From positions 1 through 60,424 of the forward strand of contig CAZKZU010000002.1 of NCBI GenBank assembly GCA_964557345.1: 60,424 nucleotides of DNA. Reading direction: 5' to 3'. The notes under the pieces were generated by a model. That model was given only the letters and a program-made list of their open reading frames with translations. It was not told the origin of the DNA and ran no database searches. Shown piece after piece: positions 6,543 through 48,492 of the stretch (its first letter is position 1; each line of letters starts with the position of its first letter). A program made the translations under genes and the position numbers. The DNA comes from an uncultured Methanosarcinales archaeon (GTDB lineage Archaea; Nanobdellota; Nanobdellia; Woesearchaeales; DATGWN01).

Positions 6543-6649
6543 CCAAACTCTCCAGAATAATACATATTGGTTATAGAAGGGTATTTATAAATCTTACGAA
6601 ATCTAATTAACATCAACTATTACTTCAATTATTATTGAAATATATATCC

Positions 6650-6795
6650 AGGCACAGAACTTTTTGACTTTTGGCCAGCATCCGTCCTCGTTGCACGCTG
6701 TCCGTATTCGACAGTTCTGCTTCCCCGCAGGGGGCATCCCCCGCAACGAACATACTGTCATCATAAATAGTACTGCGGTTAAGATGCAGGCCAAG
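6650..6795. ncRNA. GC-enriched intergenic island with nested helices; candidate structured RNA of unknown class
   Basis: Visibly GC-rich against the AT-rich background. Long-range pairing 6671-6682 (ttggccagcatc) with 6782-6793 (gatgcaggccaa), 11 of 12 pairs. Inner helix 6688-6694 (tcgttgc) with 6743-6749 (gcaacga). Hairpin ctgtc-cgtattc-gacag at 6698-6714. Hairpin ggggg-cat-ccccc at 6730-6742. Strand undetermined. Confidence 0.35.
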
Positions 6796-6824
6796 AGTAG
6801 ACTATTACCAAAATATACTTAATA

Positions 6825-6832
6825 TTTATAAA
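6825..6832 (+). promoter_or_regulatory. TATA box (TTTATAAA) upstream of the giant surface-protein gene
   Basis: It lies 19 nt before the ATG at 6851 and 31 nt before the second in-frame ATG at 6863. The true start may therefore be 6863. Confidence 0.45.
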
Positions 6833-6850
6833 TGAAAAACCAAATGAGTT

Positions 6851-9800
6851 ATGCAAGGTAGAATGATAAAATTAGATAGGATACAAAAGAGCGGTAAACA
6901 ACTAAATTTAGGGCTCTTCTTTTTCATGATATTATCTATAACTATATCGCTATTAACATTAATTAGTACTGAAGTAAACGCTACATCAACATGGGGTTGT
7001 TGTGCAGATACTGTTACTGGATGTAGAAATGTTTACACAACCGCGCAAATCCAAGATTGTGTAAATAGCCACTATGCCTTTGAGGGAGATAAATCTTGTT
7101 TTCCAATTGCATCTAATCCTGGGCTTAATATAACTACAAATCCTGTTTGTAATCAAGTGGGGTGCTGCTGTTTTAATGATGGAACGTTTAGTGCTAGAGT
7201 CACAGGACAAGCGTGCCTGTCTTTATCAGGAACATTAAAACAAGGAACTGATTGCGGAGTTGTTTGTAATTCAGTTGTTCCAATTAATACTACTTGCGCT
7301 AGCCTAGGGGGATCCTGGTGTAACTCGACGTCAAAAGCAGCGGGTGCAATCGCAATAACAGGAATTACTGATTACTCAGGTAAACCTGGAACTGAGTATA
7401 CTTGTTATAATCTTCAATGTACAACCCCTGCTAATAATTGTCAAAAAGGAAATAGTAGTTATGAAATATATTGCTTGGACGGAATCAATAACGACCAAGA
7501 TTGTAGTACAGATGTCGCAGATACTGATTGTCAAAATAGCGTGGGTGGATTTGTTAAAAATCAATACGGAATTGGGATTTCTAATGTAAAAATAAAAATA
7601 GTGAATAAACTCGCTAATGTATTTGGAAAAGACGAAATATTTTATACTTATTCGTCAGGGAATTTAGGGACTCTTTTTTATCAAGGATTATCGAAAGGAA
7701 ATTACGATGTTTTTGTAGATGATCCAATATATACTAATACTAATTCAATAAGCGGATTTACAATAGATGAAAATACTAAATTTATTTCAGGAATTCAAAT
7801 AACAGTAGTTCAAAAAAATTCATATAAATTGAAAGGGAATGTAGTTAGCAATAATGGTAGCGCAGTTGTTGGCGCCTTAGTTGTATTAGACAATAGTGAG
7901 TATAGCGCATACACAAATTCAACAGGCGGCTTTGTGATTGAAAATGTTAAAGCGGGAAATTATTTTGGAATTGCGTACAAGACAGAATATATTTCATCAA
8001 TTAGAACTCCGACATCAGTAGGACTTGGAAAAGAAAATTATTTAGCATTACAGCTTAGAACTGGAGACTGCAGTACGAGTCCTTCTGCACCAAAAATCTC
8101 GTCTATTAATAATGTTAAAGGAAAAACGGACATAATACTTAATTTTAATTCGAATAATTGTACCCCTAACTCGTATACTATTTATAGGTGTAATAAAGCG
8201 ATTGGATTGTGTAGTAATTCTTCGGAATATACTCCGGTTGCAAATGCAGGAGCAGGAGTTATAAGTTATTTAGATAGCGGACTTTTCTGGAATACTACTT
8301 ATAATTATATTGTTCTAGCAAATTATGGAACTGGTAGCTCAATGAAAAGCGTAGCTTCTTTGCCTGCAAGTATAAATACTGGAAATGAGAATTGTAACGG
8401 AGTTATTAATTTCAATAAGCATTGTAATTATAATTTTATAACTTTGTCTGGGACTAAAACTCTTAGCTCTAGCACAGTATTTTATTGTAATGCTAATAAT
8501 AGCATAACCACTGTTGGTAGTTGTACAAATAATTCTAAATGTACTGAGGATCCTTCTATCTCAGGAACAGATACTGCGTATTGTAGACAAATAGATAATT
8601 GCAGTCCTTTAAGTAATAATTATTTTGGACTGTTTTTTGGAAATAATTTTAATAATAATGCTTGCCAAGGACAAAGTAATCAAAAATTTTGCGCCCTAGA
8701 TAATTCTATAACAAACGTAAACGCTTGTAATAATTGTAAAGACTATACAACTTGTGTTGATTATAAAACTGAAAATGCATGTAATGTTAATAATTGCGGG
8801 CTTGGAAGTTGTGAATGGAAAACAACAGATTCTACATTAAAGTTAGGAATTTGTATTGATAAAATTAAATCTAATTGTGATTCTTGTACTGATGTTTTTA
8901 ACCGAGTATTTGGTTCATGTAATTCTGATGTGTGTAATTCTTTAGGTAATTGTAGTTTTAGTAAAACTAGTGGTGCTTGTAATAGTTGCAGTGCTACTTC
9001 ATGTTATGATTATGATGGTGCAAACTCTTGCGGCAATTCGCCTTATGGAGCAATAAATCTAAAAACAAATGCGGTAATTATTGCACAAGATACTTGTAAA
9101 ATAGGTGTTTGCGCTTGGAATCCTACGGTAAGTGATGGAACTTGCTTTAAAGATGCTGACGCTGACGGAAGAGATGATTGTGAAAGTGCCTCGATAATAT
9201 TCGGGGCTAATGGAACTAATGCGTACACACAAGATTATTGTAAAAAAGACGTATTGCCTCCTGAAACAAAAATATTGCTTAATAAAAAAAGTTTTAATCC
9301 TTCTGGACCTATGAACGGAAAAATTACTGCTACTTTTAATTCATTAGATAGAGTTTCTAATTCAGATGCGTTTAGAACTAAAATCTTTGGAGTAAAGGAG
9401 GTTTATTTCTGCATCGACGATGTTGCAGGAAATTATTGTAAAAACACAAAACAAAACTATAACACTGTACCAAAAGTAGATGGAAATTATCAGATCGACA
9501 TAAGTGGTGGAACATATGTTGCATTAGGAATTGGAAGTAATAAATATTATCTAAAAAGCGGTACAAATATATTAAAATATTATGCTAAAGATTATGCTAA
9601 TAATATGGAAATTGTAAAATCAGAGGAGTTTTACGTTGATACTTTCCCTCCCGCGCTAAATGTTTCTTTTGTTAAATTCCCAGATATGGTTAGTGGAACT
9701 TCGGATGTATCCATTTTTGTCGAAGCAGATGAAGATGTGTATTGTTATTCGGAACAAGCGGATTGTAATGTATACGGAAATTGTGATAATAATAAGTTTA

Positions 9801-12800
9801 CTGGAAATATTACTGAAGCATTTTTACAAGCTAAAGCTCAACAGTTTGCAAAAACATATACTAGAGAAGTTTTCGGTCTTGAAGATGGAACGTATTTGGT
9901 CAAAACTGTTTGTGTTGATAAATCAGGTAACGTAAATAATAAAACTTCGGTTTTGAGTATAAATGTAGATTCTAGAATTTTTGACGGGGTTCCAAACGGC
10001 GCAATTAATTACACTAATGTCATTTTAAAAGTAAAAACTGCATCTAACGTACAATGCAAATACGGGACTTCAATAAGTGCTAATTTTAATACAATGCAAA
10101 ATTTAATGACTAAAAAAGCAGTGGATACATACTACGAGCATACTGCACAAATCGTAGTTAGTGGAAATTCAGTTCAAAATTATTATGTCAGATGTAATTA
10201 TGATCCTGTTGCAATGGAAAAAATAAGTTTTGTTGTCGATAATATTAAACCAAGTGTAAAAGCAATATTGAATGGAATTGAAATCGGCGATGGCGCTACG
10301 TGGACTCAAAATGCTAATTTGGAATTAAGATGTTCTGATTCCCCTGAATTCGGCTTTGGATGTAACCAAACATATTATTGCACTTCTGACATCGTTAATT
10401 TTAATAATCTTCAAAATGTAGTTTCTTGCACGCCAACAACTACGTATGTTGGACCATTAAACATATCATCTCCAAAAACAGTTTGCTTTTATTCGGTTGA
10501 AAATATTCGAAGTGTTGATAATAAAATTGTAGGAGGTTTGAGTTCAGGAATAATATGTAGGAATATTCTGACAAGTGATTCTGAACCTATATTGTCAATT
10601 AACAATATATCAAATACTACTAATAGAAATAGCATTCTTATTGGAGGAGGAGTTAGAAGTAACCTTCCAGGAAATAAAAAATTATTTTTCAAAATCAACT
10701 CAGAGCTAATTAAAACTGTTGATACTTTGAGCAACTTTAGCTTCCAAACAACTCTAACTAGAGGAACGCCAGTCCACGGGAATAAATATGAATTGACAAT
10801 GTATGCACAAGATGTTTCAGGAAAACAATCTGAATCTTATTCTAAAATTATTACCTACGATTTATCTGGACCAGAAGTTAAAGATTTAAAAGTTCAAACT
10901 CTAAGTACCGGAGATAATTATGGTTCTAATATGGAATTCGGATATAGGGGTCAAATAAGGTTAACTGCAGAAGATGATTACAGCGGAGTGTCTAAAGTTT
11001 TAGTCGAGATTGAAGGAATTCAAAGTGAACTAAAATTCAATGCTCTAAATGGAAAATGGGAGGGCGCAATAAATTCACAAGATTTACCTATCGGTAATTT
11101 TACACCAAAAATTACTTTGTATGATGGACTTGGAAACATTAATGTCGTTTATCTTACTGATGCTGTCGAAATAATTGATGCAATAAATCCAGCATTTACT
11201 ATTAATCTTAAAAGACAGTATTTTAATACAGACGCTCCATTTATAGATATAAATACTAGTGTACTTACTAGTTGTTCAATAAAGTATACTGCTAAAAATA
11301 ATATAAATTATTCGCACCTATTCTCAACTAGTTATTCTAAAGATTTTTCAGTTCAAGTTAAATCTCAACTATATTCTGATGTTGATGACGAGGTTAAGAA
11401 TATAATCAGAGTTGATTGTGTTGATCGAAATGGTAGCAAAGTTGCTAGAATGTTTAACACTTTTGTTGATCTTAAAAAACCAGTTTATTTTGCGGGAATA
11501 TCCTCATTATCTGCTGAAAAGGTAATAACTATGAGAAACGAGATAGATTATCTTGGATTAAAAGCAGAAGACTATTTATTATATTTTAAATCTGATGAAC
11601 CAGTTAATTGCAGATATGCGAAAAGTAATGAACTTAGCTCTAATGGATATGGTTACAATTACACGCTCAGAAATTTTATTAGAAACTTCACTAATTCAAG
11701 AGATACTAATTATATTGTTAATGATGTATCTGACGGAATTTACTTACAAGATAAAACTTCTTATGACTATAAAATACTTTGTGAAGATAGAGCAGGAAAT
11801 CAAGGAAACATTAAAACCATTAAAATAAGTGTAGATTCAGATAGCAGGCCTTATCTATTTAATCTGGACGAGAAACATATAATTAATAATAATAATAGTA
11901 ATAGTAATAATAACGCACTACAAGGAATTAATTTCTATACTGCAAGACCGACTGAGTGCACATATAGCATCAATAGCAGTGAAATAAAAAATCTGGAACA
12001 TAAAAATATTTCGCAAAACATATATGAGTACACTGTAAATACTTCAGACATTATTTCAAATTATGCAGACGGAACTTATGAATTACGGGTTTTATGTAAA
12101 AAACAAAATACAACTAATGCATTCTACACTGTAAGATCTAGTATTATTAAAGACACAATTTCACCCATACTTATATCTGCTAACGGGAAATTGACTGACA
12201 AAACATCGACAGAAAACGTTCTGCCTTATTTTAATGAAGATAAAAAAGAAATTATAAATACTGCTGGCGGAATTATAAATTTTAGTTTTATAACTAATGA
12301 AGATACGAACGTTGCAATTTACAACAACAATGTTCTTACTGCAATAAGTTCAAAAGGAAAAAATCTGAATTTAGAGATTCCATTGATATACGGACTTAAC
12401 GATCTTGAAATTGCAGTAATCGATATTGCAGGAAACTATATTTCCACAAGAGTTCCAGTTATTTCTTCTAGAAATACTCCTGATATAAAACTATCAGAAC
12501 TTTTAGATAACTCTCTTTCAAATAGTTACCAAGGAAATATAAAGTCAAATGTTGCACTAAATACTCCTAATATTAAACTTAAATATGCTCAGAAAGAAAT
12601 AACTATTCCTATTACCCTTATCCCTAATTCTCTTATTCCGAACAGCGGAGTTAATAATTATTATTATAATATATCATTTAGTAAAAATATTCTTTACAGT
12701 CTAATTGATAATAATAATAATAATAATAATAATAATGGCAGTATCAATAATAGTGCAAATAATTTGTCAGGACTTAGTTCTTTTGATTGGCAATATTCTA

Positions 12801-15800
12801 AAAATAATAGTGCATATAATCAAAATTTGATTGATCCGAAAGTCTCAAACATTATTTCACTAGAACTTTATGATGCAGGTCAAAAAATACAAACAGAAGT
12901 TTTCTTATACAGTCCTTTTTCAGAAAGTCTAAAAATATATTCTCCATCGTATAAAGATATTTCTAACGGTGAAATAAGTAATTATAATGAAATAAAAATC
13001 AGCGGAAAAGTAAACAATGATAACTATATCATAGGAGGAAGATATTCTGTAGAAACTACTAATTCGCAAAATAAGATTTCTCCAATAATGGTTCTTGCAA
13101 AAATTATTTCTGAAGGGAGAGGGTTTAAAACTTTTAAATTTAATAATGCGGTTTTACAAGAATTAAACATTAATCAAAATAAATATTCTGTAAGTATTCC
13201 TTATTTAGATAGCGGATACTTATATTTAGAATTATTGAACGATTTAGGAACTTCAGTTATTAAATCAACATTTTTTAGAACTGAGAAAAATAGTCCTTAT
13301 CCAACAATCACAATTTTCCCCGGCGGAGGAGATACTGCTTATTCAAATAGGCCTCAATTCTTAGTAGAAAATAGTGTCCTTGGTAGAATTAAAACAGCAT
13401 ACGTGTCTAATTTTGACCTGTCTAAAAATTATTCTGTTTCTGGAATAGATCCTCAATTTAATTTCAGAGATATAATTATACAAAACGATGCATTGGATGG
13501 AGAAAATGTGTATTATTTGAATGTCATCATAGAAGATAGTAAAGGCAATCTTGTTGAAAAGCAATTTGCTTTTATATTTTCAGTTGCAGACTTTAATTTG
13601 TATCTTAAAACACCTAAATATGGAGTAATGACTAGTAATAATCAAAATGTATATTTAGAGTCAAATATGCCTGCTATGTGCAAATATGCATATTCAGATA
13701 AACCTTATTCCAATATGACTAATGTTACTAATTATTATTCAAGCAAACATAGGTTTATTACAAATATTACTACTAGAGAAAATGTGTATATACGATGTGA
13801 TGCATATGCCGATTCAACTAATAAATTATTTAATTATACTCTTGAAATTGATAACATTGCGCCACAAATTACAAGCATAACTATCGACAATGCTAAATCA
13901 AAGAGCGGAGGATTCTTAATAACTGAATATCCTCTTGAAGCACAAGTAAAAATAAATACGAATAAATTGGCATATTGTAGATATGATATTTCTAAAAATG
14001 AAGCTGGTTTGAAAACGACGTTTGCAAATATGAGGGATGTTGCAATATCTGAATGTGTCGGCATTCAAGATGGAAATTTTTGTTTTAACACTCAATCTAA
14101 TATTAAAATTCCTAATTTACAAGATAAGACTAAGTACTATTTACAAACTATTTGCCAAGGCAAATCTGAATTAAATAGTTCTATTGCAAAAAGAACAATT
14201 GAAGTTGATCTAGGAAAAGATAGCATTAACATTATATCTCCAAATACATATGAGTCAAATCTTAGGATAGACGTTGTTGTTGAAACTAAAAATAATGCGG
14301 AATATTGTGCTATTTCCTCTGGAAATTCAACTCAATTCAGTAATTTAACAAAAGTTAGTGATAAAAGATTTAACTCTTCAATTAGTTTTACAACGACAGG
14401 TCAAAAATCAATAACAATTAGTTGTAAAGTTGGCGAAGAGATATACAATAGAACAAAAATATTCACAATCGATAACACAGTTCCTTTAAGAGGATATATA
14501 GTTCATGCTAATTCGACAACTATTAATTATAGTTTATCTGCAAAAGCAGAGAACTTTTCAGATCCAGAATCAGATATTGAAAGGTATGAGTTTGCAATTG
14601 GCACGGCGCCATTCGGGCAAGATAATTGGAATTCCGTATTAAATTGGACTAGCTCTAGTTCAAGTAATCTTGTGGCAAATAACTTAAATTTAGCTAGAAA
14701 AACAACTTTCTACTGGAGCGTCAGGGTGTTGAATAAGGCTAATTTGTATTCAGTGCCTATTTCTAGCGCAGGAATTTATGTTGAAAATGTAAGCGTTATA
14801 GTTGAATCTGTGCCTAGCTGCAGAAACGGGATTAAAGATGCGAATGAAACTGGAGTAGATTGCGGTGAAAAATGTAATAAAGAATGTCCTGAAGGAACTC
14901 TTTGTCAATACGATGATGACTGTTTTTCGATTGCACTCACTTGTACTAATAACGAATGTAGTTATAGGAATTCAGGTGGCGGTAGTCACACTACAGCGTG
15001 TACTGATGGAATTAAAGATGGAAATGAGACTGGAGTAGACTGTGGAGAGAGCTGTAATAAAGAATGTCCTGAAGGAACTATTTGCGAGTTCGACGTAGAT
15101 TGTTTCTCAGCTAACTTGAAATGTAGTAACAATCTTTGTAGTAAAAGTGATAATAATATTTTTATTAATAGAACATTAGATGAGCCAGATATTAGCATAA
15201 ATAATAATTCTAGTAATTGGTGGATTTATTTAATTATACTCCTTATTGGAATATTAATTATTGCAGTGGTACTTGCATACTATTTCCTCATATATAAAAA
15301 GAAAGATGACGAAACAAATATTTCAAATTATGGTAATATGAATGGAACAACTGGAATGAATACAACTACTCCTAATATGAGTAATAGAGTAAACCCTGCT
15401 GATCAGAATAGACCAAATGTTTCTATTAATAATAAGGGAAATAATAGCAATAATAATGCTCCTAACGTTCCAATATCAAATGTGCCGATATATGCTGAAC
15501 CTGAAGAAAGAAAAGAAGATTTAATTAAAAGGATACTTGAAAAGAAATTAATTGAAGAGAGAAAAAAGAAAGGTAATCAAGAACGAGAAGGACGATTCAA
15601 TTTATTTGAAAGTAAAAAGCGGTTTTCAGATGGGAATAGTGCTTACGGTTCAGGAAATAAGGTTTCTACAAGTAGTAGTGCTGAACAACCAAAAAGAGTT
15701 GTTAAAGAAGAAATAAAACCTAAAGTCCAAGAAACCATTTACAAATCAAATGATGCTGAAAAAGACATTAAGACCGCTGTTAAAAAAGAAATAATTACTG

Positions 15801-15925
15801 AAAAAGATAATCTTGCTAAATTAAAGGAAGATAAAAATAATTCTTTAAATGGGATAAGGGGTCTTAAGAAAAAGAACCAGGAAGTCACTAAAAATACAAA
15901 AAGTAGTAGTAATAAAAAGAGGTAA
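6851..15925 (+). CDS. Giant (3024 aa) Cys-rich cell-surface protein / putative adhesin with a C-terminal TM anchor and cytoplasmic tail
   Basis: Uninterrupted 9 kb ORF. N-terminal signal-anchor LGLFFFMILSITISLLTLIS. Cys-rich N-terminal modules. Carboxypeptidase-regulatory/PEGA-like beta-sandwich stretches (e.g. GNVVSNNGSAVVGALVVLDNSEYSAYTNSTGGFVIENVKAGNY). Many NxS/T sequons. Two tandem Cys-rich modules. TM helix WWIYLIILLIGILIIAVVLAYYFLIY. Tail of roughly 240 aa rich in Asn, then Lys/Glu. Confidence 0.85.
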   Translation: MQGRMIKLDRIQKSGKQLNLGLFFFMILSITISLLTLISTEVNATSTWGCCADTVTGCRNVYTTAQIQDCVNSHYAFEGDKSCFPIASNPGLNITTNPVCNQVGCCCFNDGTFSARVTGQACLSLSGTLKQGTDCGVVCNSVVPINTTCASLGGSWCNSTSKAAGAIAITGITDYSGKPGTEYTCYNLQCTTPANNCQKGNSSYEIYCLDGINNDQDCSTDVADTDCQNSVGGFVKNQYGIGISNVKIKIVNKLANVFGKDEIFYTYSSGNLGTLFYQGLSKGNYDVFVDDPIYTNTNSISGFTIDENTKFISGIQITVVQKNSYKLKGNVVSNNGSAVVGALVVLDNSEYSAYTNSTGGFVIENVKAGNYFGIAYKTEYISSIRTPTSVGLGKENYLALQLRTGDCSTSPSAPKISSINNVKGKTDIILNFNSNNCTPNSYTIYRCNKAIGLCSNSSEYTPVANAGAGVISYLDSGLFWNTTYNYIVLANYGTGSSMKSVASLPASINTGNENCNGVINFNKHCNYNFITLSGTKTLSSSTVFYCNANNSITTVGSCTNNSKCTEDPSISGTDTAYCRQIDNCSPLSNNYFGLFFGNNFNNNACQGQSNQKFCALDNSITNVNACNNCKDYTTCVDYKTENACNVNNCGLGSCEWKTTDSTLKLGICIDKIKSNCDSCTDVFNRVFGSCNSDVCNSLGNCSFSKTSGACNSCSATSCYDYDGANSCGNSPYGAINLKTNAVIIAQDTCKIGVCAWNPTVSDGTCFKDADADGRDDCESASIIFGANGTNAYTQDYCKKDVLPPETKILLNKKSFNPSGPMNGKITATFNSLDRVSNSDAFRTKIFGVKEVYFCIDDVAGNYCKNTKQNYNTVPKVDGNYQIDISGGTYVALGIGSNKYYLKSGTNILKYYAKDYANNMEIVKSEEFYVDTFPPALNVSFVKFPDMVSGTSDVSIFVEADEDVYCYSEQADCNVYGNCDNNKFTGNITEAFLQAKAQQFAKTYTREVFGLEDGTYLVKTVCVDKSGNVNNKTSVLSINVDSRIFDGVPNGAINYTNVILKVKTASNVQCKYGTSISANFNTMQNLMTKKAVDTYYEHTAQIVVSGNSVQNYYVRCNYDPVAMEKISFVVDNIKPSVKAILNGIEIGDGATWTQNANLELRCSDSPEFGFGCNQTYYCTSDIVNFNNLQNVVSCTPTTTYVGPLNISSPKTVCFYSVENIRSVDNKIVGGLSSGIICRNILTSDSEPILSINNISNTTNRNSILIGGGVRSNLPGNKKLFFKINSELIKTVDTLSNFSFQTTLTRGTPVHGNKYELTMYAQDVSGKQSESYSKIITYDLSGPEVKDLKVQTLSTGDNYGSNMEFGYRGQIRLTAEDDYSGVSKVLVEIEGIQSELKFNALNGKWEGAINSQDLPIGNFTPKITLYDGLGNINVVYLTDAVEIIDAINPAFTINLKRQYFNTDAPFIDINTSVLTSCSIKYTAKNNINYSHLFSTSYSKDFSVQVKSQLYSDVDDEVKNIIRVDCVDRNGSKVARMFNTFVDLKKPVYFAGISSLSAEKVITMRNEIDYLGLKAEDYLLYFKSDEPVNCRYAKSNELSSNGYGYNYTLRNFIRNFTNSRDTNYIVNDVSDGIYLQDKTSYDYKILCEDRAGNQGNIKTIKISVDSDSRPYLFNLDEKHIINNNNSNSNNNALQGINFYTARPTECTYSINSSEIKNLEHKNISQNIYEYTVNTSDIISNYADGTYELRVLCKKQNTTNAFYTVRSSIIKDTISPILISANGKLTDKTSTENVLPYFNEDKKEIINTAGGIINFSFITNEDTNVAIYNNNVLTAISSKGKNLNLEIPLIYGLNDLEIAVIDIAGNYISTRVPVISSRNTPDIKLSELLDNSLSNSYQGNIKSNVALNTPNIKLKYAQKEITIPITLIPNSLIPNSGVNNYYYNISFSKNILYSLIDNNNNNNNNNGSINNSANNLSGLSSFDWQYSKNNSAYNQNLIDPKVSNIISLELYDAGQKIQTEVFLYSPFSESLKIYSPSYKDISNGEISNYNEIKISGKVNNDNYIIGGRYSVETTNSQNKISPIMVLAKIISEGRGFKTFKFNNAVLQELNINQNKYSVSIPYLDSGYLYLELLNDLGTSVIKSTFFRTEKNSPYPTITIFPGGGDTAYSNRPQFLVENSVLGRIKTAYVSNFDLSKNYSVSGIDPQFNFRDIIIQNDALDGENVYYLNVIIEDSKGNLVEKQFAFIFSVADFNLYLKTPKYGVMTSNNQNVYLESNMPAMCKYAYSDKPYSNMTNVTNYYSSKHRFITNITTRENVYIRCDAYADSTNKLFNYTLEIDNIAPQITSITIDNAKSKSGGFLITEYPLEAQVKINTNKLAYCRYDISKNEAGLKTTFANMRDVAISECVGIQDGNFCFNTQSNIKIPNLQDKTKYYLQTICQGKSELNSSIAKRTIEVDLGKDSINIISPNTYESNLRIDVVVETKNNAEYCAISSGNSTQFSNLTKVSDKRFNSSISFTTTGQKSITISCKVGEEIYNRTKIFTIDNTVPLRGYIVHANSTTINYSLSAKAENFSDPESDIERYEFAIGTAPFGQDNWNSVLNWTSSSSSNLVANNLNLARKTTFYWSVRVLNKANLYSVPISSAGIYVENVSVIVESVPSCRNGIKDANETGVDCGEKCNKECPEGTLCQYDDDCFSIALTCTNNECSYRNSGGGSHTTACTDGIKDGNETGVDCGESCNKECPEGTICEFDVDCFSANLKCSNNLCSKSDNNIFINRTLDEPDISINNNSSNWWIYLIILLIGILIIAVVLAYYFLIYKKKDDETNISNYGNMNGTTGMNTTTPNMSNRVNPADQNRPNVSINNKGNNSNNNAPNVPISNVPIYAEPEERKEDLIKRILEKKLIEERKKKGNQEREGRFNLFESKKRFSDGNSAYGSGNKVSTSSSAEQPKRVVKEEIKPKVQETIYKSNDAEKDIKTAVKKEIITEKDNLAKLKEDKNNSLNGIRGLKKKNQEVTKNTKSSSNKKR
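12710..12736 (+). repeat. (AAT)9 trinucleotide microsatellite inside the giant gene, encoding a poly-Asn run
   Basis: gat (aat)x9 ggc reads as D-N9-G in frame. A second, imperfect aat/agt run lies at about 11881-11915. Confidence 0.9.
14819..15142 (+). repeat. Tandem duplication of a 48-aa Cys-rich module near the C-terminus of the giant protein
   Basis: CRNGIKDANETGVDCGEKCNKECPEGTLCQYDDDCFSIALTCTNNECS (14819-14962) and CTDGIKDGNETGVDCGESCNKECPEGTICEFDVDCFSANLKCSNNLCS (14999-15142). They share an identical 27-nt stretch, tgtaataaagaatgtcctgaaggaact. Confidence 0.85.
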
Positions 15926-18476: not shown

Positions 18477-18606
18477 GAGCTCTCCTTATTAAGTGTTACG
18501 ACTGTGTTATAGGAACAGGTATGTTTATTTTATTTATAAAGATGTTCTTTTGAAAAATATGTGCTCGAGATCTATCATGTTAATTATAAATTGCAAATAA
18601 ACATTA

Positions 18607-18680
18607 GGGTAAGCTCAGTAGTTACTTCCGCATTTCATCGGCATACGCCTCAACGGGTGTTCACCTCATCATCGCTCACA
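18607..18680. repeat. Short or truncated member (copy A) of the structured intergenic element family
   Basis: Shares gtaagct(c) at its 5' end, a tcggcatacgcct core (18638-18650, versus tcggcattcgcct in copies B and C) and a cctcatcatcgctc block. No matching 3' closing arm was found. Confidence 0.35.
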
Positions 18681-18850
18681 ATTGTTGATATTTTGCACCG
18701 GTTTAAAAAATCAGCGATAATACTAAAATCCAGGGTTAAATTCCAAAAATAGTGGTTAAAATTGTGTGAAAGAGCCTTTTTTTTCAAAATCACCTTTTTT
18801 TCACATATTTTAGACCTAAATTTAGGCTGACGTCGAGAGGTGCCTGAAAA

Positions 18851-18876
18851 TCTCCAGTGGAAATAAAGGGGGTCCC
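18851..18876 (+). promoter_or_regulatory. Origin recognition box (ORB)-type Orc1/Cdc6 binding site just upstream of the mcm promoter
   Basis: tctccagtggaaataaagggggtccc combines the TCCAGTGGAAAT dyad core with a G-string. It matches the two ORBs at the cdc6-linked origin. A TATA-like ttttaaata lies at 18899-18907 and the mcm ATG at 18929. Confidence 0.6.
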
Positions 18877-18928
18877 ACTAGTCAACCACCGAAATTGATT
18901 TTAAATACTAGTTAAATAGCTCAAGTAT

Positions 18929-20962
18929 ATGGAAACAGCATTACAAGTATTGAAATTCAAAGAATTTATTGAACAAAACTATTTGGGAGAGCTATTATCC
19001 AATATCGCTACAGGCAAATATTTTTTAAAAATCAACTTTCAGTTCCTTTCTGCTTATGACCCTGAACTTGCAAACTTACTTTTAGATAGCCCAGAAGACT
19101 TAATTAAAGCAGGAGAGTTAGCAATAGAGCAATTTGATATTGAAAAAGAACAAAAGCCTATTAGAATTAGATTTTTTGAATTACCTTCCAAAGAAAAACT
19201 TCAAATAAGAGAAATTAGAAGTAATCATTTAGGGAAGTTCGTATTTATTGATGGTGTAGTAAGACAGAAATCAGATGTTAGACCTCAAATAGAAAAAGCA
19301 AAATTTGAATGTCCTCAATGTGGAACTACTCAAATAATTGCTCAAGATGATAAAGTTTTAACTGAACCTAAAAAATGTCATTCTTGTGGATACAAAGGAA
19401 AATTCTCGCTTATAGGTAAAACGCTTGTTGATGTGCAAGGATTTATTCTAGAAGAAACCACTGAGAGCTTGGATGGTGGAGAACAGCCAAAAAGACTTAA
19501 TGTTTTTTTGAAAGAGGATTTAGTTAGTCCAATGAGTGAGAAAAGAACTAATCCTGGAAGTAATGTTCGTGCATATGGAATATTGAAAGAAATTGCTATG
19601 GAAGCAAAAAATGGCACTCAAAAATTAATTAAATATGATTTAATTTTGATGACCAATTATATTCAGCCACTCGAAGAGGATTATAGTAGTATTGTAATTT
19701 CTAAAGAAGATGAGAAAAAAATAATTCAGTTATCAGAAGATCCAAAAATCTATGATAAATTAATTTCATCTCTTGCTCCAGGAATTTATGGACATGATAG
19801 AGTTAAAGAAGCAATTATGCTTTTATTTTTAGGAGGTGTTCAAAAACGAAGAGGGGACGGAGTAAAAAATAGAGGAGATATTCACATTCTATTAATTGGA
19901 GACCCAGGTTCAGGTAAATCTCAACTTCTAAAGAGAGCGGCAGTTATTGCTCCAAAAGGAAGATATGTTTCTGGTAAAGGTGCATCTGGAGCAGGTCTTA
20001 CTGCAGCAGTTGTAAAAAATGAATTTATTGGAGGATGGGCACTAGAAGCAGGAGCTTTGGTCTTAGCAAACAAAGGTGTTTGTATGATTGATGAATTGGA
20101 TAAGATGTCTGAAGATGATACATCAGCCATGCACGAAGCCCTAGAACAGCAAAGCGTAACTATTAGTAAAGCAAATATTCAAGCAACTCTACGGTGTGAG
20201 ACTACTGTACTTGCAGCAGCAAACCCAAAATTAGGCCGATTTGATCCGTTTGAATCACTTGCTAAACAAATTAATCTTCCTCCGGCTTTAATTAACAGAT
20301 TTGATCTTATTTTTCCATTTAGAGACGAGCCTAATGTAGAAAAAGATGAAATTATGGCTAAATTTATTCTTAACATGCATAAAGATAAAGAAACTGTTAA
20401 ACCTGATATTGATACAGATACTATTCGAAAATATATTATTTATGCTAGACAACAAATTCATCCTGTAATTACTGAAACCGCGTTGATGGAAATTAAAACT
20501 TATTACGTATCTATGAGAAATGCAAATAATGATTCTGGTAACCGAGCAATTCCTATTTCCGCACGACAGCTTGAAGCTTTAATTAGACTTACTGAGGCAT
20601 CTGCGAAATCTAGATTAGCGGATAAAGCAACAAAAAGAGATGCGCAAAGAGCAATTAGTTTGTTACATTTTTGTTTAAGTCAAGTTGGAATGGATAAAGA
20701 GACAGGGCAATTTGATATTGACAGTATTGCTACAGGAGTTACAACAAGTCAGAGAAGTAAAGTTATTGTTGTAAGAGAATTGATTAGAGATTTAGAAGAG
20801 AAATTTGGAAAGAAAATCCCTCTTAACGAAATTAAAGCTTATGCTGAAACTAAAGGTTTAAAGCTTGATGAATTAGAAGACATATTAGAGAAATTGAATA
20901 GAAATGGGGATACATTTATGCCAGACAATGATCATATCTCAAGAACAGATTATAATGGATAG
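18929..20962 (+). CDS. mcm: Replicative helicase MCM
   Basis: Zinc motif CPQCG...CHSCG, Walker A GDPGSGKSQLL, Walker B CMIDELDKM, Arg finger NRFDLIF, C-terminal winged-helix-like region. 677 aa, no intein. Confidence 0.95.
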   Translation: METALQVLKFKEFIEQNYLGELLSNIATGKYFLKINFQFLSAYDPELANLLLDSPEDLIKAGELAIEQFDIEKEQKPIRIRFFELPSKEKLQIREIRSNHLGKFVFIDGVVRQKSDVRPQIEKAKFECPQCGTTQIIAQDDKVLTEPKKCHSCGYKGKFSLIGKTLVDVQGFILEETTESLDGGEQPKRLNVFLKEDLVSPMSEKRTNPGSNVRAYGILKEIAMEAKNGTQKLIKYDLILMTNYIQPLEEDYSSIVISKEDEKKIIQLSEDPKIYDKLISSLAPGIYGHDRVKEAIMLLFLGGVQKRRGDGVKNRGDIHILLIGDPGSGKSQLLKRAAVIAPKGRYVSGKGASGAGLTAAVVKNEFIGGWALEAGALVLANKGVCMIDELDKMSEDDTSAMHEALEQQSVTISKANIQATLRCETTVLAAANPKLGRFDPFESLAKQINLPPALINRFDLIFPFRDEPNVEKDEIMAKFILNMHKDKETVKPDIDTDTIRKYIIYARQQIHPVITETALMEIKTYYVSMRNANNDSGNRAIPISARQLEALIRLTEASAKSRLADKATKRDAQRAISLLHFCLSQVGMDKETGQFDIDSIATGVTTSQRSKVIVVRELIRDLEEKFGKKIPLNEIKAYAETKGLKLDELEDILEKLNRNGDTFMPDNDHISRTDYNG

Positions 20963-20983: not shown

Positions 20984-21113
20984 CTAAAGTATACTGCCTC
21001 CTTTCGTGAGTATAATTACCTCTGAGCTAATAACTATAGAAATGAGCTGTTCCTCATTTCGTTATAGTAATCGCATCTATTTCTAATAATGCGAACTCGG
21101 TAGTATACTTTAG
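20984..21113 (+). repeat. Structured intergenic element, copy D (15-bp closing stem); candidate ncRNA or MITE-like repeat
   Basis: ctaaagtatactgcc (20984-20998) pairs with ggtagtatactttag (21099-21113): 15 pairs including one G.T, which is tolerated only on the + strand as RNA. Internal hairpin aaatgag-ctgttc-ctcattt. The termini resemble those of copies B and C. Confidence 0.4.
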
Positions 21114-21176: not shown

Positions 21177-21315
21177 AAAAGTATGCTGTTAATTCGCCAA
21201 TCTTCTTTTTGTCGGCATTCGCCTGTCAATAGTCGCGAACACTCCTCACTATGCGTTCGTCGCTGCTCTTTTCATGAACACGTGATATTGGCTCATAATA
21301 AAACAGCATACTTTT
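21177..21315 (+). repeat. Structured intergenic element, copy B (perfect 14-bp closing stem); candidate ncRNA or MITE-like repeat
   Basis: aaaagtatgctgtt (21177-21190) pairs perfectly with aacagcatactttt (21302-21315). Second helix gccaat (21196-21201) with attggc (21287-21292). Visibly GC-enriched core. Homologous to 47559-47757. A T-run follows the 3' arm. Confidence 0.45.
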
Positions 21316-21379
21316 TTATCATTATAGATGCACTCAAACAATAATAACTAATATAAACCTTAATCATTTTGAGTTAAAT

Positions 21380-22069
21380 ATGGCTGAACAAGAAACTTTA
21401 CAACCAACTGAGGAACGTAAGAAAAGGCAAGTTGCATATGTTGTTTCTATTGGAGATGTTATTGCAGGGGAATTTGTTAAAGTTGGGGGATGGGAACCTA
21501 ATTTTGTTAAAACACCGTTTGGATTAAAAGTTTCTAGAGTTAATTTGATTGGAACCATTCTTGAGAAGAAAGGAGATATTGTTGTAATTGATGATACTAC
21601 AGGAATTATTACTATTCGATCTTTTGGCGATTTCCCTCCGTTTGGTAAAGTAAATATTGGTGATTATGTTATGATTATAGGAAAGGTGCGACAATTTAAT
21701 GAGGAAATTTATGTTATGCCTGAATTGTGTAAGAAAATTGAAAGAACTTGGCACGATTTCCGTCTTGAAGAAATATATCTTATAAAAAAATTATATAGAG
21801 AAGGAAAAATAAAGCAAGAAGAGCAGAAACTTCAAATTAAAATTGATAATGATAGATCTGATAGTGATGGGACTGTATTTGAAAAGAAAGAAAATGATGC
21901 TGAGAAAATAATTAGATATATTAATGAAAATGATAAAGGTAGTGGTGTAAGTAAAAATGATTTGCTTGGTAATTTCTTAGGAGATGACTTTGATAATATT
22001 TTTAATAAGTTAATAAATGATGGCGATATATTCGAGATTAAACCTGGTGTGTTTAAGATTCTTAAATAG
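21380..22069 (+). CDS. RPA32/Rpa2-like single-stranded DNA-binding protein (OB fold + C-terminal winged helix)
   Basis: The OB-fold pattern VSRVNLIGTILEKKGDIVVIDDTTGIITIRSF...VMIIGKVRQFNEEIYVMPE resembles RPA32/Stn1-type OB domains. The C-terminus GVSKNDLLGNF...INDGDIFEIKPGVFKI looks like a winged helix. Located next to mcm and oriC. Confidence 0.6.
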   Translation: MAEQETLQPTEERKKRQVAYVVSIGDVIAGEFVKVGGWEPNFVKTPFGLKVSRVNLIGTILEKKGDIVVIDDTTGIITIRSFGDFPPFGKVNIGDYVMIIGKVRQFNEEIYVMPELCKKIERTWHDFRLEEIYLIKKLYREGKIKQEEQKLQIKIDNDRSDSDGTVFEKKENDAEKIIRYINENDKGSGVSKNDLLGNFLGDDFDNIFNKLINDGDIFEIKPGVFKILK

Positions 22070-22986: not shown

Positions 22987-23221
22987 TTTTGTGTCTCAAT
23001 TTATATTTTAATAATTAATATTTCATAAGGTAATTGATTATCCTTTTTAAAGGTTCTGGTTTGTAACTATTGTTAAGTAAATACACTTTTAAAAATATAC
23101 TCTGATTTACTCGTAAAATATACGCTTTTACAATTATAATTACAATAAACTATTAATAAGAATGATATGATAACTATATTATACATTGTATATAATAATA
23201 TGAATTTAGTACTTATATATA

Positions 23222-23248
23222 GGGTCACCCCCTCATTTCCACTGGAAG
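23222..23248 (-). promoter_or_regulatory. ORB element (left, inverted) of the replication origin
   Basis: The top strand gggtcaccccctcatttccactggaag has the reverse complement cttccagtggaaatgagggggtgaccc. Dyad core plus G-string. Confidence 0.75.
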
Positions 23249-23622
23249 ATAATTAAAAAATTAAAAATACAAAAAACAAAAATTATTGTTAAAAATCGTT
23301 TGTAAAAGTTTTGAATAATTATTAAAAAATTATTTAAGTTCTCTTATACAATTTAATTATTTTAAAATTTTTTTTATAATATAATAGTCATTTGTTTGTT
23401 TTTTTATTTAAAAATAATATTTTTATTATAATAGTAATAGTTCTAATTTATTTTATTATTATTATTATATTGTATAATATATATATTATATATAATTACT
23501 TTCTATATAGATAATAATATGAAGATTAATCAAAAAAGTGTGAAATCAAAAAGTTAAAGTTTATTAAGAAAAAAATGAAGGTAATAAAGCTATTTTTTGT
23601 TTTTTGTTTTTTTATTATTCAT
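23249..23622. other. A/T-rich duplex unwinding region of oriC between the inverted ORBs
   Basis: About 370 bp of almost pure A/T with tataat/atatat runs. Its ends mirror each other: aaaaatacaaaaaacaaaaa next to the left ORB and ttttttgttttttgttttttt next to the right ORB. Confidence 0.7.
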
Positions 23623-23648
23623 GTTTCCAGTGGAAATGATGGGGTGGC
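23623..23648 (+). promoter_or_regulatory. ORB element (right) of the replication origin
   Basis: gtttccagtggaaatgatggggtggc has the same core and G-string as 23222-23248 in the opposite orientation. It lies 160 nt upstream of orc1/cdc6. Confidence 0.75.
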
Positions 23649-23806
23649 GTATTATGTTCAATATATATAATTGAATTTTATATATTCGGGAATTTATAAT
23701 ATAAGATGATTAACTTTAAAAAGGACCTTTGCTTCGTATGGAAATTAAGGGGAAAGTATAGATTATATTAAATTTATACATATATATTTTATTTTGAGGA
23801 TAGAAA

Positions 23807-25027
23807 ATGACTGATGAAGTAGACGATTTTTTTGAAAAGTATATTGAAAGTACTCCTTTATTTAAGAATAAAAAAATTCTCCAATCTAACTATATTCCTG
23901 ACTCAATATTACATAGAGAGAAAGAAATTAAACAGATGGCTAAAATTTTAGCACCTGCTCTTAAAGGGGATAGACCATCTAATTTGTTTATTTATGGTAA
24001 AACTGGTACTGGAAAGACTCTTACAGCGCAATATTTTTCTCAGAAGCTTATTTATGCGGGTACTAATAATAAAAATAGTGGTAAAACTGATTTTGATGTA
24101 AAAATAGTTTATGTTAATTGTAAGCTTAAAAGAATAGCTGATACTGAGTATCGACTTATTGCACAATTAGCAAGAGAATTTGGTAAAGATATACCACCAA
24201 CTGGACTTCCAACTGATGAAGTATATAAAATTTTTACGCAAGCACTTGATAATAAAAAACAAGTTGTTATATTTATTTTAGATGAGATTGATCAGCTTGT
24301 TAAAAAAACTGGTGATGAAATTATTTATAATTTAACAAGAATTAATTCTGAATTAGTTAATGCTCAAATATCATTAATAGGAATTTCAAACGATTTAATG
24401 TTTACTGAACATTTAGATCCGAGAGTAAAATCTAGTCTAAGTGAAGAAGAATTAATGTTTCCACCATATAATGCAGTTCAAATTCAACAAATATTAAAAG
24501 AAAGATCAAAAGAAGCTTTTGCTGACGGAATTATTGAAGATGGTGTTATTGAAAAATGCGCAGCATTAGCCGCTAGAGAACATGGAGATGCAAGAAGAGC
24601 GCTTGAATTACTTCGAGTTTCTGGAGAATTGTCTGAAAGAGATAGTTCACCTATATTATTATTAAAATATGTGGATGAAGCAGAAAATAAGATTGAAAGA
24701 GATAAAGTTTTTGATGTTGTGGCATCTCAACCAAAACAATTTCAAACTGTAATTTATGCAATATTATTATCTAATAAAGATGGGATGAAAGATATTTTAA
24801 CTGGAGAAATATATTCAGAATACAAAAATATTTGTGATAAGATTGGACTAAGACCTCTTACTCAAAGAAGAGTTTCAGATATTTTAGCAGAATTTGACAT
24901 GCTTGGAATAATTAATGCTAAAGTTATGTCTAAAGGAAGATATGGTAGGACTAGAGAAATTTCTCTTGCAATTCCAGAACAAACTAAAAAGAATTTATTA
25001 AAAATGTTAAAAGATAATTTAGAATAA
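23807..25027 (+). CDS. cdc6: Orc1/Cdc6 replication initiator
   Basis: Walker A IYGKTGTGKT, Walker B FILDEIDQL, AAA+ lid, C-terminal winged helix (RPLTQRRVSDILAEFDMLGII). 406 aa. Confidence 0.95.
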   Translation: MTDEVDDFFEKYIESTPLFKNKKILQSNYIPDSILHREKEIKQMAKILAPALKGDRPSNLFIYGKTGTGKTLTAQYFSQKLIYAGTNNKNSGKTDFDVKIVYVNCKLKRIADTEYRLIAQLAREFGKDIPPTGLPTDEVYKIFTQALDNKKQVVIFILDEIDQLVKKTGDEIIYNLTRINSELVNAQISLIGISNDLMFTEHLDPRVKSSLSEEELMFPPYNAVQIQQILKERSKEAFADGIIEDGVIEKCAALAAREHGDARRALELLRVSGELSERDSSPILLLKYVDEAENKIERDKVFDVVASQPKQFQTVIYAILLSNKDGMKDILTGEIYSEYKNICDKIGLRPLTQRRVSDILAEFDMLGIINAKVMSKGRYGRTREISLAIPEQTKKNLLKMLKDNLE

Positions 25028-47558: not shown

Positions 47559-47757
47559 ATAAGTAAGCTACCAATTCGCCATTCTTCCAATTTTGGCTCG
47601 TAAAGACAAAAATGGAATTTGAAAAAGTAAGGCTTTTTCATTAATTCTTTATTTCGGCATTCGCCTGTTTATTGTCGCAACGCTCGTTCGCTATTCGCTC
47701 CTCGCTGCTCCATCAAGTCATACGAAATAGTGGCTCATACACAGGTAGCATACTTAT
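47559..47757 (+). repeat. Structured intergenic element, copy C (homologue of 21177-21315 with an insertion of about 65 nt)
   Basis: ataagtaagctacc (47559-47572) pairs with ggtagcatacttat (47744-47757), 13 of 14 pairs. Blocks shared with copy B: aattcgccattcttc, tcggcattcgcctgt (15/15 identical), tcgctgctc, tggctcata. The insertion carries the hairpin gaaaaag-taagg-ctttttc. Confidence 0.45.
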
Positions 47758-47823: not shown

Positions 47824-48492
47824 ATGGATGTTAAAGAAGCTATTATCAAAAGACGGTCTATTAGAAGTTTTCAAGATATTCCTATTCCGCGTGATGTGCT
47901 AGTTGATATTCTTGTCGCTGGACAATATGCGCCTAATGCAGGTAATTTACAAAATTGGAGATTTATAATCGTTGATGATGAGCATCTTAAAGACCAAGTT
48001 GCAGATTATTGTCACGAACAGACTTGGATGAAAACGGCGCCTGTTTTTATAGTAATTTTTATGGATTTTCCAAAGATGAAGAAGTTTTATGCAGAAAGAG
48101 GGGATACTTATTGTCATCAAACTGCAGCAGCGGTTGCAGAAAATATGATTATTATGGCCCAATCGCATGGGCTTTCAAGTTGTTGGGTTGGAGCTTATAA
48201 TGACGAAATGGTTAATCAAGTGTTAAATGCCCCTCCAAATTTTAAGGCAGCAGTAATTTTACCAATTGGGTATGCTAATGAAAAAGCGCCAGTTCCATTA
48301 AAATTAGAGTTACCCGCAGTTGTTTATAGAAATAATTGGGGAGGAAGAGGAAGAGTTGTTGAGGATTTCCTTGTACTTAATGATTATCTAGGTATGGTTC
48401 ATGGTGCTGCACATAAGACATCTAAGGGTTTTAGGAGCACGATGGGCGTTATTAGAGATAAAATTAAGAATAAATTTAAGCGAGAGAAGTGA
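47824..48492 (+). CDS. Nitroreductase-family flavoprotein
   Basis: AIIKRRSIRSFQDIPIPRDVL..IL.AGQYAPNAGNLQNWRFIIV is the typical nitroreductase N-terminus. 222 aa. Confidence 0.85.
   Translation: MDVKEAIIKRRSIRSFQDIPIPRDVLVDILVAGQYAPNAGNLQNWRFIIVDDEHLKDQVADYCHEQTWMKTAPVFIVIFMDFPKMKKFYAERGDTYCHQTAAAVAENMIIMAQSHGLSSCWVGAYNDEMVNQVLNAPPNFKAAVILPIGYANEKAPVPLKLELPAVVYRNNWGGRGRVVEDFLVLNDYLGMVHGAAHKTSKGFRSTMGVIRDKIKNKFKREK

Follow-up and report, generated by a model that had tools for sequence, protein, structure and literature searches.

Three short elements (A, B, and C) in the 60,424-nt stretch of DNA analyzed here (the window) are, on balance and with some reservation, best read as members of a new family of non-autonomous, hairpin-ended mobile repeats of the MITE/REPIN type. 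Rather than a new RNA gene, they most probably represent selfish mobile DNA. The mobile-repeat reading is drawn from four observations: no element follows the MCM gene in six relatives, the copies sit at unrelated loci, related copies are arranged in tandem beside an insertion sequence (IS), and element A carries unrelated cargo. An earlier note on this DNA had left B and C as either an undescribed structured RNA family or an unusual hairpin-forming mobile repeat, and the second alternative fits the evidence. In the proposed mechanism, small non-coding units would have entered the AT-rich spacers of a chromosome from the Woesearchaeota (DPANN), and an enzyme whose gene lies elsewhere would copy or move them in trans. 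If this is right, the elements document a hairpin-ended repeat family in one DPANN genome; little has been described of mobile DNA in this group.

The window has 30.3% GC and encodes core chromosomal functions, including FttA, a proteasome subunit, MCM, Cdc6, PolD, SMC/ScpA, and DNA ligase. Elements B (21177-21315) and C (47559-47757) are 26 kb apart, and both lie in spacers that separate plus-strand genes. Element B is found between the MCM gene (18929-20962, plus strand) and a gene for an RPA-like OB-fold protein (21380-22069, plus strand), and element C between an unannotated plus-strand ORF of 240 aa and a nitroreductase gene (47824-48492, plus strand). The conserved blocks quoted in the earlier note were all found in both copies: aattcgcca[a/t]tcttc at 21191 (B) and 47573 (C), the identical 15-mer tcggcattcgcctgt at 21212-21226 (B) and 47654-47668 (C), and the tcgctgctc and tggctcata blocks. 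The two loci match each other by blastn (E = 8e-12), and a family profile run on the window recovers B (E = 2e-40) and C (E = 4e-34) and no others. Judged by their sequences, B and C are real homologues. In B, the 5' arm AAAAGTATGCTGTT (21177-21190) is the perfect complement of the 3' arm AACAGCATACTTTT (21302-21315), which leads into a T6 tract (21312-21317). In C, the 5' arm ATAAGTAAGCTACC (47559-47572) pairs at 13 of 14 positions with the 3' arm GGTAGCATACTTAT (47744-47757), which is followed by T-rich sequence; the perfect 14-bp stem described for B holds, and that of C has one A.A mismatch that had been missed. The three swapped inner pairs are compensatory as described, TGTT/AACA in B against TACC/GGTA in C. 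A perfect 14-bp inverted repeat at the spacing of B arises in 6 of 60 shuffled versions of the window, so the stem alone is unremarkable; what is remarkable is the B/C homology together with the common stem motif.

Two further copies of the core are present on a metagenome contig (Ga0208248_1024223, 1435 bp, 35% GC; here L117). Copy c1 (about 1388-1269, minus strand) has no 5' arm and is 79-81% identical to the window copies (E = 2e-22 for B and 3e-25 for C), and copy c2 (92-1, minus strand) has 76-88% identity and is cut by the contig end. The B cargo (21191-21301, plus strand) is 79% identical to c1 over 121 nt (E = 2e-22). The recovered set therefore consists of four core copies (B, C, c1, and c2) plus A, and of the core copies only B and C are complete. 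A complete IS5-family element of 1176 bp (L117 93-1268, minus strand as read) lies between c1 and c2. It encodes a 311-aa transposase (domains DUF772 and DDE_Tnp_1) and is bounded by inverted repeats of 16 bp, GAGAACTTTG(C/A)A(A/T)AAG, that terminate in GAATAAG as in IS5; TATA borders it on either side as a 4-bp duplication. Its ends are unrelated to the arms of A, B, and C. The insertion splits a palindrome common to c1 and c2, GGCAGTATACTGCC, which reads GGCAG-TATA-CTGCC. Deleting the IS and one TATA restores the continuous sequence ...CTCATAACAA-GGCAGTATACTGCC-AATTCGCC..., a head-to-tail pair in which the 3' arm of one copy and the 5' arm of the other share a 14-bp palindrome.

Element C probably records a similar arrangement, as a decayed dimer. 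Its block 1, AATTCGCCATTCTTC (47573-47588, plus strand), aligns to B 21191-21205 and is probably what is left of a first monomer after internal deletion. The following stretch of about 62 nt (47589-47650, plus strand) reads as a decayed tandem junction, with 3'-block-like TTGGCTCGTAA and a degenerate 5' arm, AAAAAGTAAGGCT. Aligned locally to a model junction made of the B 3' end plus the B 5' end, it scores 36, a value reached by 0 of 300 shuffles (20.6 +/- 3.8). The core of the second monomer (47651-47743, plus strand), including the 15-mer, matches the L117 copies at 81-87% identity (E = 3e-25). Together with the tandem pair on L117 and the adjacency of A and B, the C dimer suggests that clustering is habitual for this repeat family. 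Head-to-tail dimers could arise by recombination or by re-insertion at the palindromic center GTATAC.

Element A (20984-21113) lies 63 nt upstream of B and has arms CTAAAGTATACTGCC and GGTAGTATACTTTAG that form a 15-bp stem with one G.T pair. Its cargo is AT-rich (34% GC), strongly self-pairing, and unrelated to the interior of B and C; its fold is the strongest of the three (z = -6.4), and it has no T tract. Elements A, B, and C range from 130 to 199 nt and have inverted terminal arms of 14-15 bp, with a common outer stem AAGTAT(A/G)CT and the consensus (A/T)AAGTAT(A/G)CT(G/A)YY ... RR(C/T)AG(C/T)ATACTT(A/T). Across the three stems, both partners have changed in 6 of 15 pairs and the paired fraction of cells is 93%, a level matched by only 3 of 500 column shuffles; stems slid to other registers are 22-50% paired. 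About six two-sided changes stand against two unpaired ones. Pairing of the ends has thus been maintained, with the same ends around different cargo. The best reading of A is a sister element of B and C with the same arms. Elements B and C also have in common a derived G-C pair (GTATGC/GCATAC) where A and L117 have GTATAC, from which it follows that arms travel with their cargo.

REPIN/RAYT, IS200/IS605-type, and attC systems operate by recognizing hairpins formed by single-stranded DNA. The enzyme that moves the present elements may likewise read their paired ends as a single-stranded hairpin and not as a fixed sequence. Terminal repeats bound by a classical transposase are not expected to covary, and it is from this that we infer the hairpin-recognition step; compensatory changes in the arms would not be favored by a transposase that binds a fixed terminal sequence. 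The pairing of the ends, kept by such changes, therefore points to recognition of the hairpin. With four core copies recovered, our account of mobilization (enzyme, choice of strand, and chemistry of insertion) is a proposed one.

The palindromic junction on L117 also allows a different reading, in which the elements are site-specific recombination modules or foreign relics, and a circular or linear piece of DNA with a GGCAGTATACTGCC-like palindromic junction was integrated at palindromic AAGTA|TACTT sites of the chromosome. Both junctions of such a module would be inverted repeats by construction, as in attL/attR or dif-module architecture. Joining the outer half-arms does give near-identical palindromes in three of three cases (CTAAAGTATACTTTAG, AAAAGTATACTTTT, and ATAAGTATACTTAT), and joining the inner half-arms gives palindromes like the actual tandem junction of L117; the cargo is variable and foreign in origin, as this reading would have it. 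The central hexamers, however, are inverted and not direct (GTATGC/GCATAC in B and GTAAGC/GCATAC in C), which a conservative crossover within a common core would not produce. The inner halves also covary between copies of one genome, no recombinase is encoded nearby, and no intact AAGTATACTT site was found in the spacers of the window or of the relatives. We consider recombination modules unlikely on these grounds.

Comparison with relatives indicates that A and B are lineage-specific insertions, in agreement with the mobile-repeat reading. The six closest relatives with DNA available (MCM 69-74% identical; named Woesearchaeota or Nanoarchaeota, DPANN, at NCBI) have short gaps after MCM. By the NCBI names of its homologues, the MCM protein of the window also belongs to Woesearchaeota/Nanoarchaeota. 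The next gene is RPA-like in five of them, with gaps of 58 nt (L123), 8 nt (L129), and -4 nt (L125, L141, and L143), and a different gene follows after 8 nt in the sixth (L142). The same gap in the window is 417 nt long and is filled by A and B. Elements A, B, and C have no counterpart in approximately 74 kb of non-redundant DNA from the relatives, nor does that DNA contain a similar long-stem element. In three of the six (L123, L125, and L143) a TBP gene lies directly upstream of MCM, and none is there in the window. Variable insertion sites with target-site duplications had been named in the earlier note as the sign of a MITE; the sites do vary, while target-site duplications could not be shown. 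The flanks of B and C are loosely similar (TTTTC/TTATC and TCTTGTC/TCTTTC), but they are AT-rich and no target-site duplication is definable. A model with GTATAC as the duplicated target fits A and L117 and fails for B and C. The proteins encoded in the window include no transposase, no recombinase, and no Y1_Tnp domain. An autonomous element with matching ends was found neither in the window nor on L117, where the ends of the IS5-family element differ.

The position of B and C upstream of genes raises the question of a domesticated cis-acting hairpin, which would separate convergently read-through genes from the next promoter in the role of a terminator or insulator. The distance to the next start codon is 64 nt from the end of B and 66 nt from the end of C, with TATA-like boxes just beyond each element; B and C are oriented like the genes on both sides, and T-rich tracts follow their stems. 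The relatives nevertheless do without such an element, and their genes even overlap. Termination in archaea needs oligo-T and not hairpins, and A has no T tract. A terminator would also leave the NRAMP-derived fragment (see below) and the tandem copies unexplained. We regard this function as very unlikely to be what the elements are for, although it is possible as a side effect. In a transcript read through from upstream, the stem and T tract of a mobile repeat would yield a stable 3' hairpin as a by-product and not as the purpose of the element.

The origin of the core can be traced in part. Upstream of AATTCGCC, copy c1 runs in frame into high-GC sequence that reads TTAAQAASALRPLAGEFAFILF-VGI, and NRAMP transporters (PF01566) dominate the matches of a six-frame search in protein space. 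Aligned pairwise with NRAMP proteins, the TTAAQAASALRPLAGEFAFILF-VGI segment is identical at 24 of 26 positions. At the DNA level the match to NRAMP genes extends through GTCGGCATTC, minus one codon, and an NRAMP gene on a Burkholderia plasmid matches over positions 1-54. The stretch from AATTCGCC to GTCGGCATTC (about 30 nt) is what B, C, and c2 have in common with the NRAMP-matching end of c1; in B it occupies 21191-21220 (plus strand) and is homologous to the NRAMP codons EFAFILF(A)VGI. Since B, C, and c2 have these last 30 or so NRAMP nucleotides of c1, the 5' part of the core is NRAMP coding sequence. On L117, the core is joined in frame to an NRAMP (PF01566) fragment of about 70% GC (minus strand as read, 1435-1389), which looks like a trace of DNA from a high-GC bacterium. 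The B/C subfamily may have arisen around such an acquired fragment of bacterial-type DNA, which would make the NRAMP fragment a small, datable trace of cross-domain DNA acquisition. The remainder of the core had no match in plasmids and phages (BLAST), where the NRAMP part alone matched, nor in a six-frame search of protein space with the NRAMP segment removed, nor in viral contigs (three scans, no true match).

This origin bears on the composition of the elements. The earlier note had observed that both cores are GC-rich, and they are (44% in B and 40% in C against 30% in the window); it had taken this as a signature of structural RNA, an argument undercut by a core that is partly derived from a high-GC gene. 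The first 30 or so nucleotides are high-GC NRAMP coding sequence, and the GC-richness of B and C is, as far as the match extends, at least partly of high-GC bacterial-type gene origin.

A rival reading is that B and C are genes of an undescribed structured small RNA, transcribed from the plus strand, closed by the terminal stem, and ending at the T tract. The closing stem covaries, the folds beat shuffles, a T6 tract follows the stem of B, the core is GC-rich, and the blocks CGGCATTCGCCTG and TCGCTGCTC are invariant in four of four copies. The G.T pair in the stem of A and the T.G pair in the second helix of C are wobbles on the plus strand only, which is a weak fit to this reading. Folding itself singles out no strand or molecule, since B and C beat shuffles on both strands (z = -3.7 to -5.3) and do so whether treated as RNA or DNA; the minus strand folds equally well. 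The invariant runs are close to what we estimate for chance at about 20% divergence over about 120 nt. The second helix is as described in B (gccaat/attggc) and C (gccatt/agtggc), but in c1 it is broken to GCCTTT/ATTGGC with three pairs left. An RNAalifold alignment of B, C minus its junction, and c1 gave -9.4 kcal/mol with a positive covariation term, did not predict the second helix, and contained no compensatory interior pairs. An Rfam search returned no known family at the gathering score, and at E <= 10 it returned chance matches only, none within the elements. ARAGORN found no tRNA in the whole window; with this result and stems that have no bulges, a tRNA, a split tRNA, and a BHB intron were rejected. 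Coding for a small hydrophobic peptide or type I toxin was also rejected, as the copies have no common start codon or frame.

An undescribed structured RNA family is thus not borne out: covariation is confined to the closing stem, conservation does not extend to the interior helices, an NRAMP coding fragment lies inside, the same stem surrounds unrelated cargo in A, and no element follows MCM in six of six relatives, five of which have the same MCM-RPA gene order. We consider small RNA genes quite improbable. Reading the elements as mobile repeats removes a false lead, in that this GC-rich, well-folding island would not be a new archaeal RNA. The HgcC-type GC-rich archaeal sRNAs are similar in being GC-rich islands in AT-rich spacers with a stable predicted fold; in the present elements, interior structure and position are unconserved, and the GC-richness comes from a captured gene fragment.

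Mobile repeats with comparable properties have been described in bacteria and archaea. REPINs have compensatory hairpin changes and occur in tandem clusters (PMC3116915), and one Woesearchaea genome is reported to be among the most MITE-dense archaeal genomes, with 105 per Mb (PMC11602168). The REPIN/REP-BIME units of bacteria, moved by RAYT (IS200-like Y1) proteins, resemble the elements described here as non-coding, extragenic hairpin units with compensatory sides, tandem clustering, a role as IS targets, and structure that outweighs spacer sequence (PMC3116915). They differ in build, since REPINs consist of two REPs of about 20-35 nt with a short spacer, whereas the present elements have arms of 14-15 bp and a cargo of 100-170 nt. 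The host here is an archaeon, the cargo includes a gene fragment, no RAYT/Y1 transposase is among the window proteins, and no REP singlets were seen.

Elements A, B, and C also have features of MITEs: they are shorter than about 500 bp, non-coding, and bounded by terminal inverted repeats, and they occupy unrelated sites and are absent from orthologous ones. Prokaryotic MITEs (Correia elements of Neisseria, SM1-SM4 of Sulfolobus, and those of Woesearchaea, PMC11602168) are comparable in size (130-200 bp), intergenic location, terminal inverted repeats, multiple copies, absence from orthologous sites, internal deletions, and dimers. In contrast to MITEs, the elements showed neither a target-site duplication nor a parent IS sharing their ends; these ends covary and are not fixed, and unrelated cargo is found between them.

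Integron attC sites are recognized as folded hairpins. The present elements are like them in total size, in the proposed recognition of a folded single strand, in structure that prevails over sequence, and in a variable center. They lack the R/L boxes (GTTRRRY), extrahelical bases, unpaired spacer, cassette ORFs, and integrase of attC systems; read directly, the stems of A, B, and C are continuous and contain no GTTRRRY core. A bolder proposal, which we put forward as speculative and on present evidence unlikely, is that the arms belong to a structure-recognized, single-stranded hairpin mobilization system of DPANN archaea that accepts arbitrary cargo, including bacterial gene fragments. If true, it would be an archaeal counterpart of REPIN/attC-type elements that captures and spreads cross-domain DNA.

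Searches beyond the relatives added a single locus. A metagenome scan gave 19 chance matches and one true locus (L117), and the pattern CGGCATTCGCCTGNNNNNNGTCGC in a genome collection gave, among the matches listed, only chance ones in high-GC bacteria. An exhaustive profile search of 1.8 billion representatives returned two matches, neither of them real: the first is a translated satellite repeat with no relation to the elements, and the second (P0242), a repetitive protein of low complexity, was judged spurious from its sequence alone. Within the window, chance accounts for the AGTATACT sites at 7395, 11283, and 57210 and for an inverted repeat at 915/1174; those inspected (915/1174, 11283, and 57210) lie in ORFs or at ORF ends. 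In run SRR12261226, two Logan contigs start inside the elements, L001 at window position 21246 in B and L002 at 47658 in C. This hints at further near-identical copies in the sample, but low coverage could also account for it. Repeats of this kind break assemblies, and both of these contigs end inside them.

Several other intergenic regions of the window deserve mention. Upstream of MCM, a 452-nt spacer (18477-18928) lies beside a divergent ORF of 676 aa that has no Pfam match. A possible fourth copy at 18590-18750 was rejected (profile E = 8.6, no stem). The spacer holds a candidate C/D box sRNA (18611-18678, minus strand; GCG-AUGAUGA-12 nt-UUGA-GGCGUAUGCC-GAUGAAA-14 nt-CUGA-GC), which has weak Rfam matches to sR55, sR1, and sR14 below the gathering score, and its center resembles the 15-mer by chance. 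Another GC-rich (about 45%) intergenic element is found at about 6667-6800, in the spacer 6543-6850. It has a closing stem of about 15 bp (CTTTTGGCCAGCATC/GATGCAGGCCAAGAG), whose arms bear no relation to the arms of A, B, or C, and a multibranch fold (z = -3.9), and it had no Rfam match even at E <= 10. The ORF downstream of this spacer (6851-15925) encodes 3024 aa, with AAT-rich (Asn-rich) repeats and direct repeats of about 180 nt at 14828-15108, and may be a giant surface protein. The probable replication origin is an 820-nt spacer at 22987-23806, which is 9-20% GC, contains numerous AT-rich repeats, both inverted and direct, and immediately precedes cdc6/orc1 (23807-25027); the genes for MCM, RPA, and PolD are close by.
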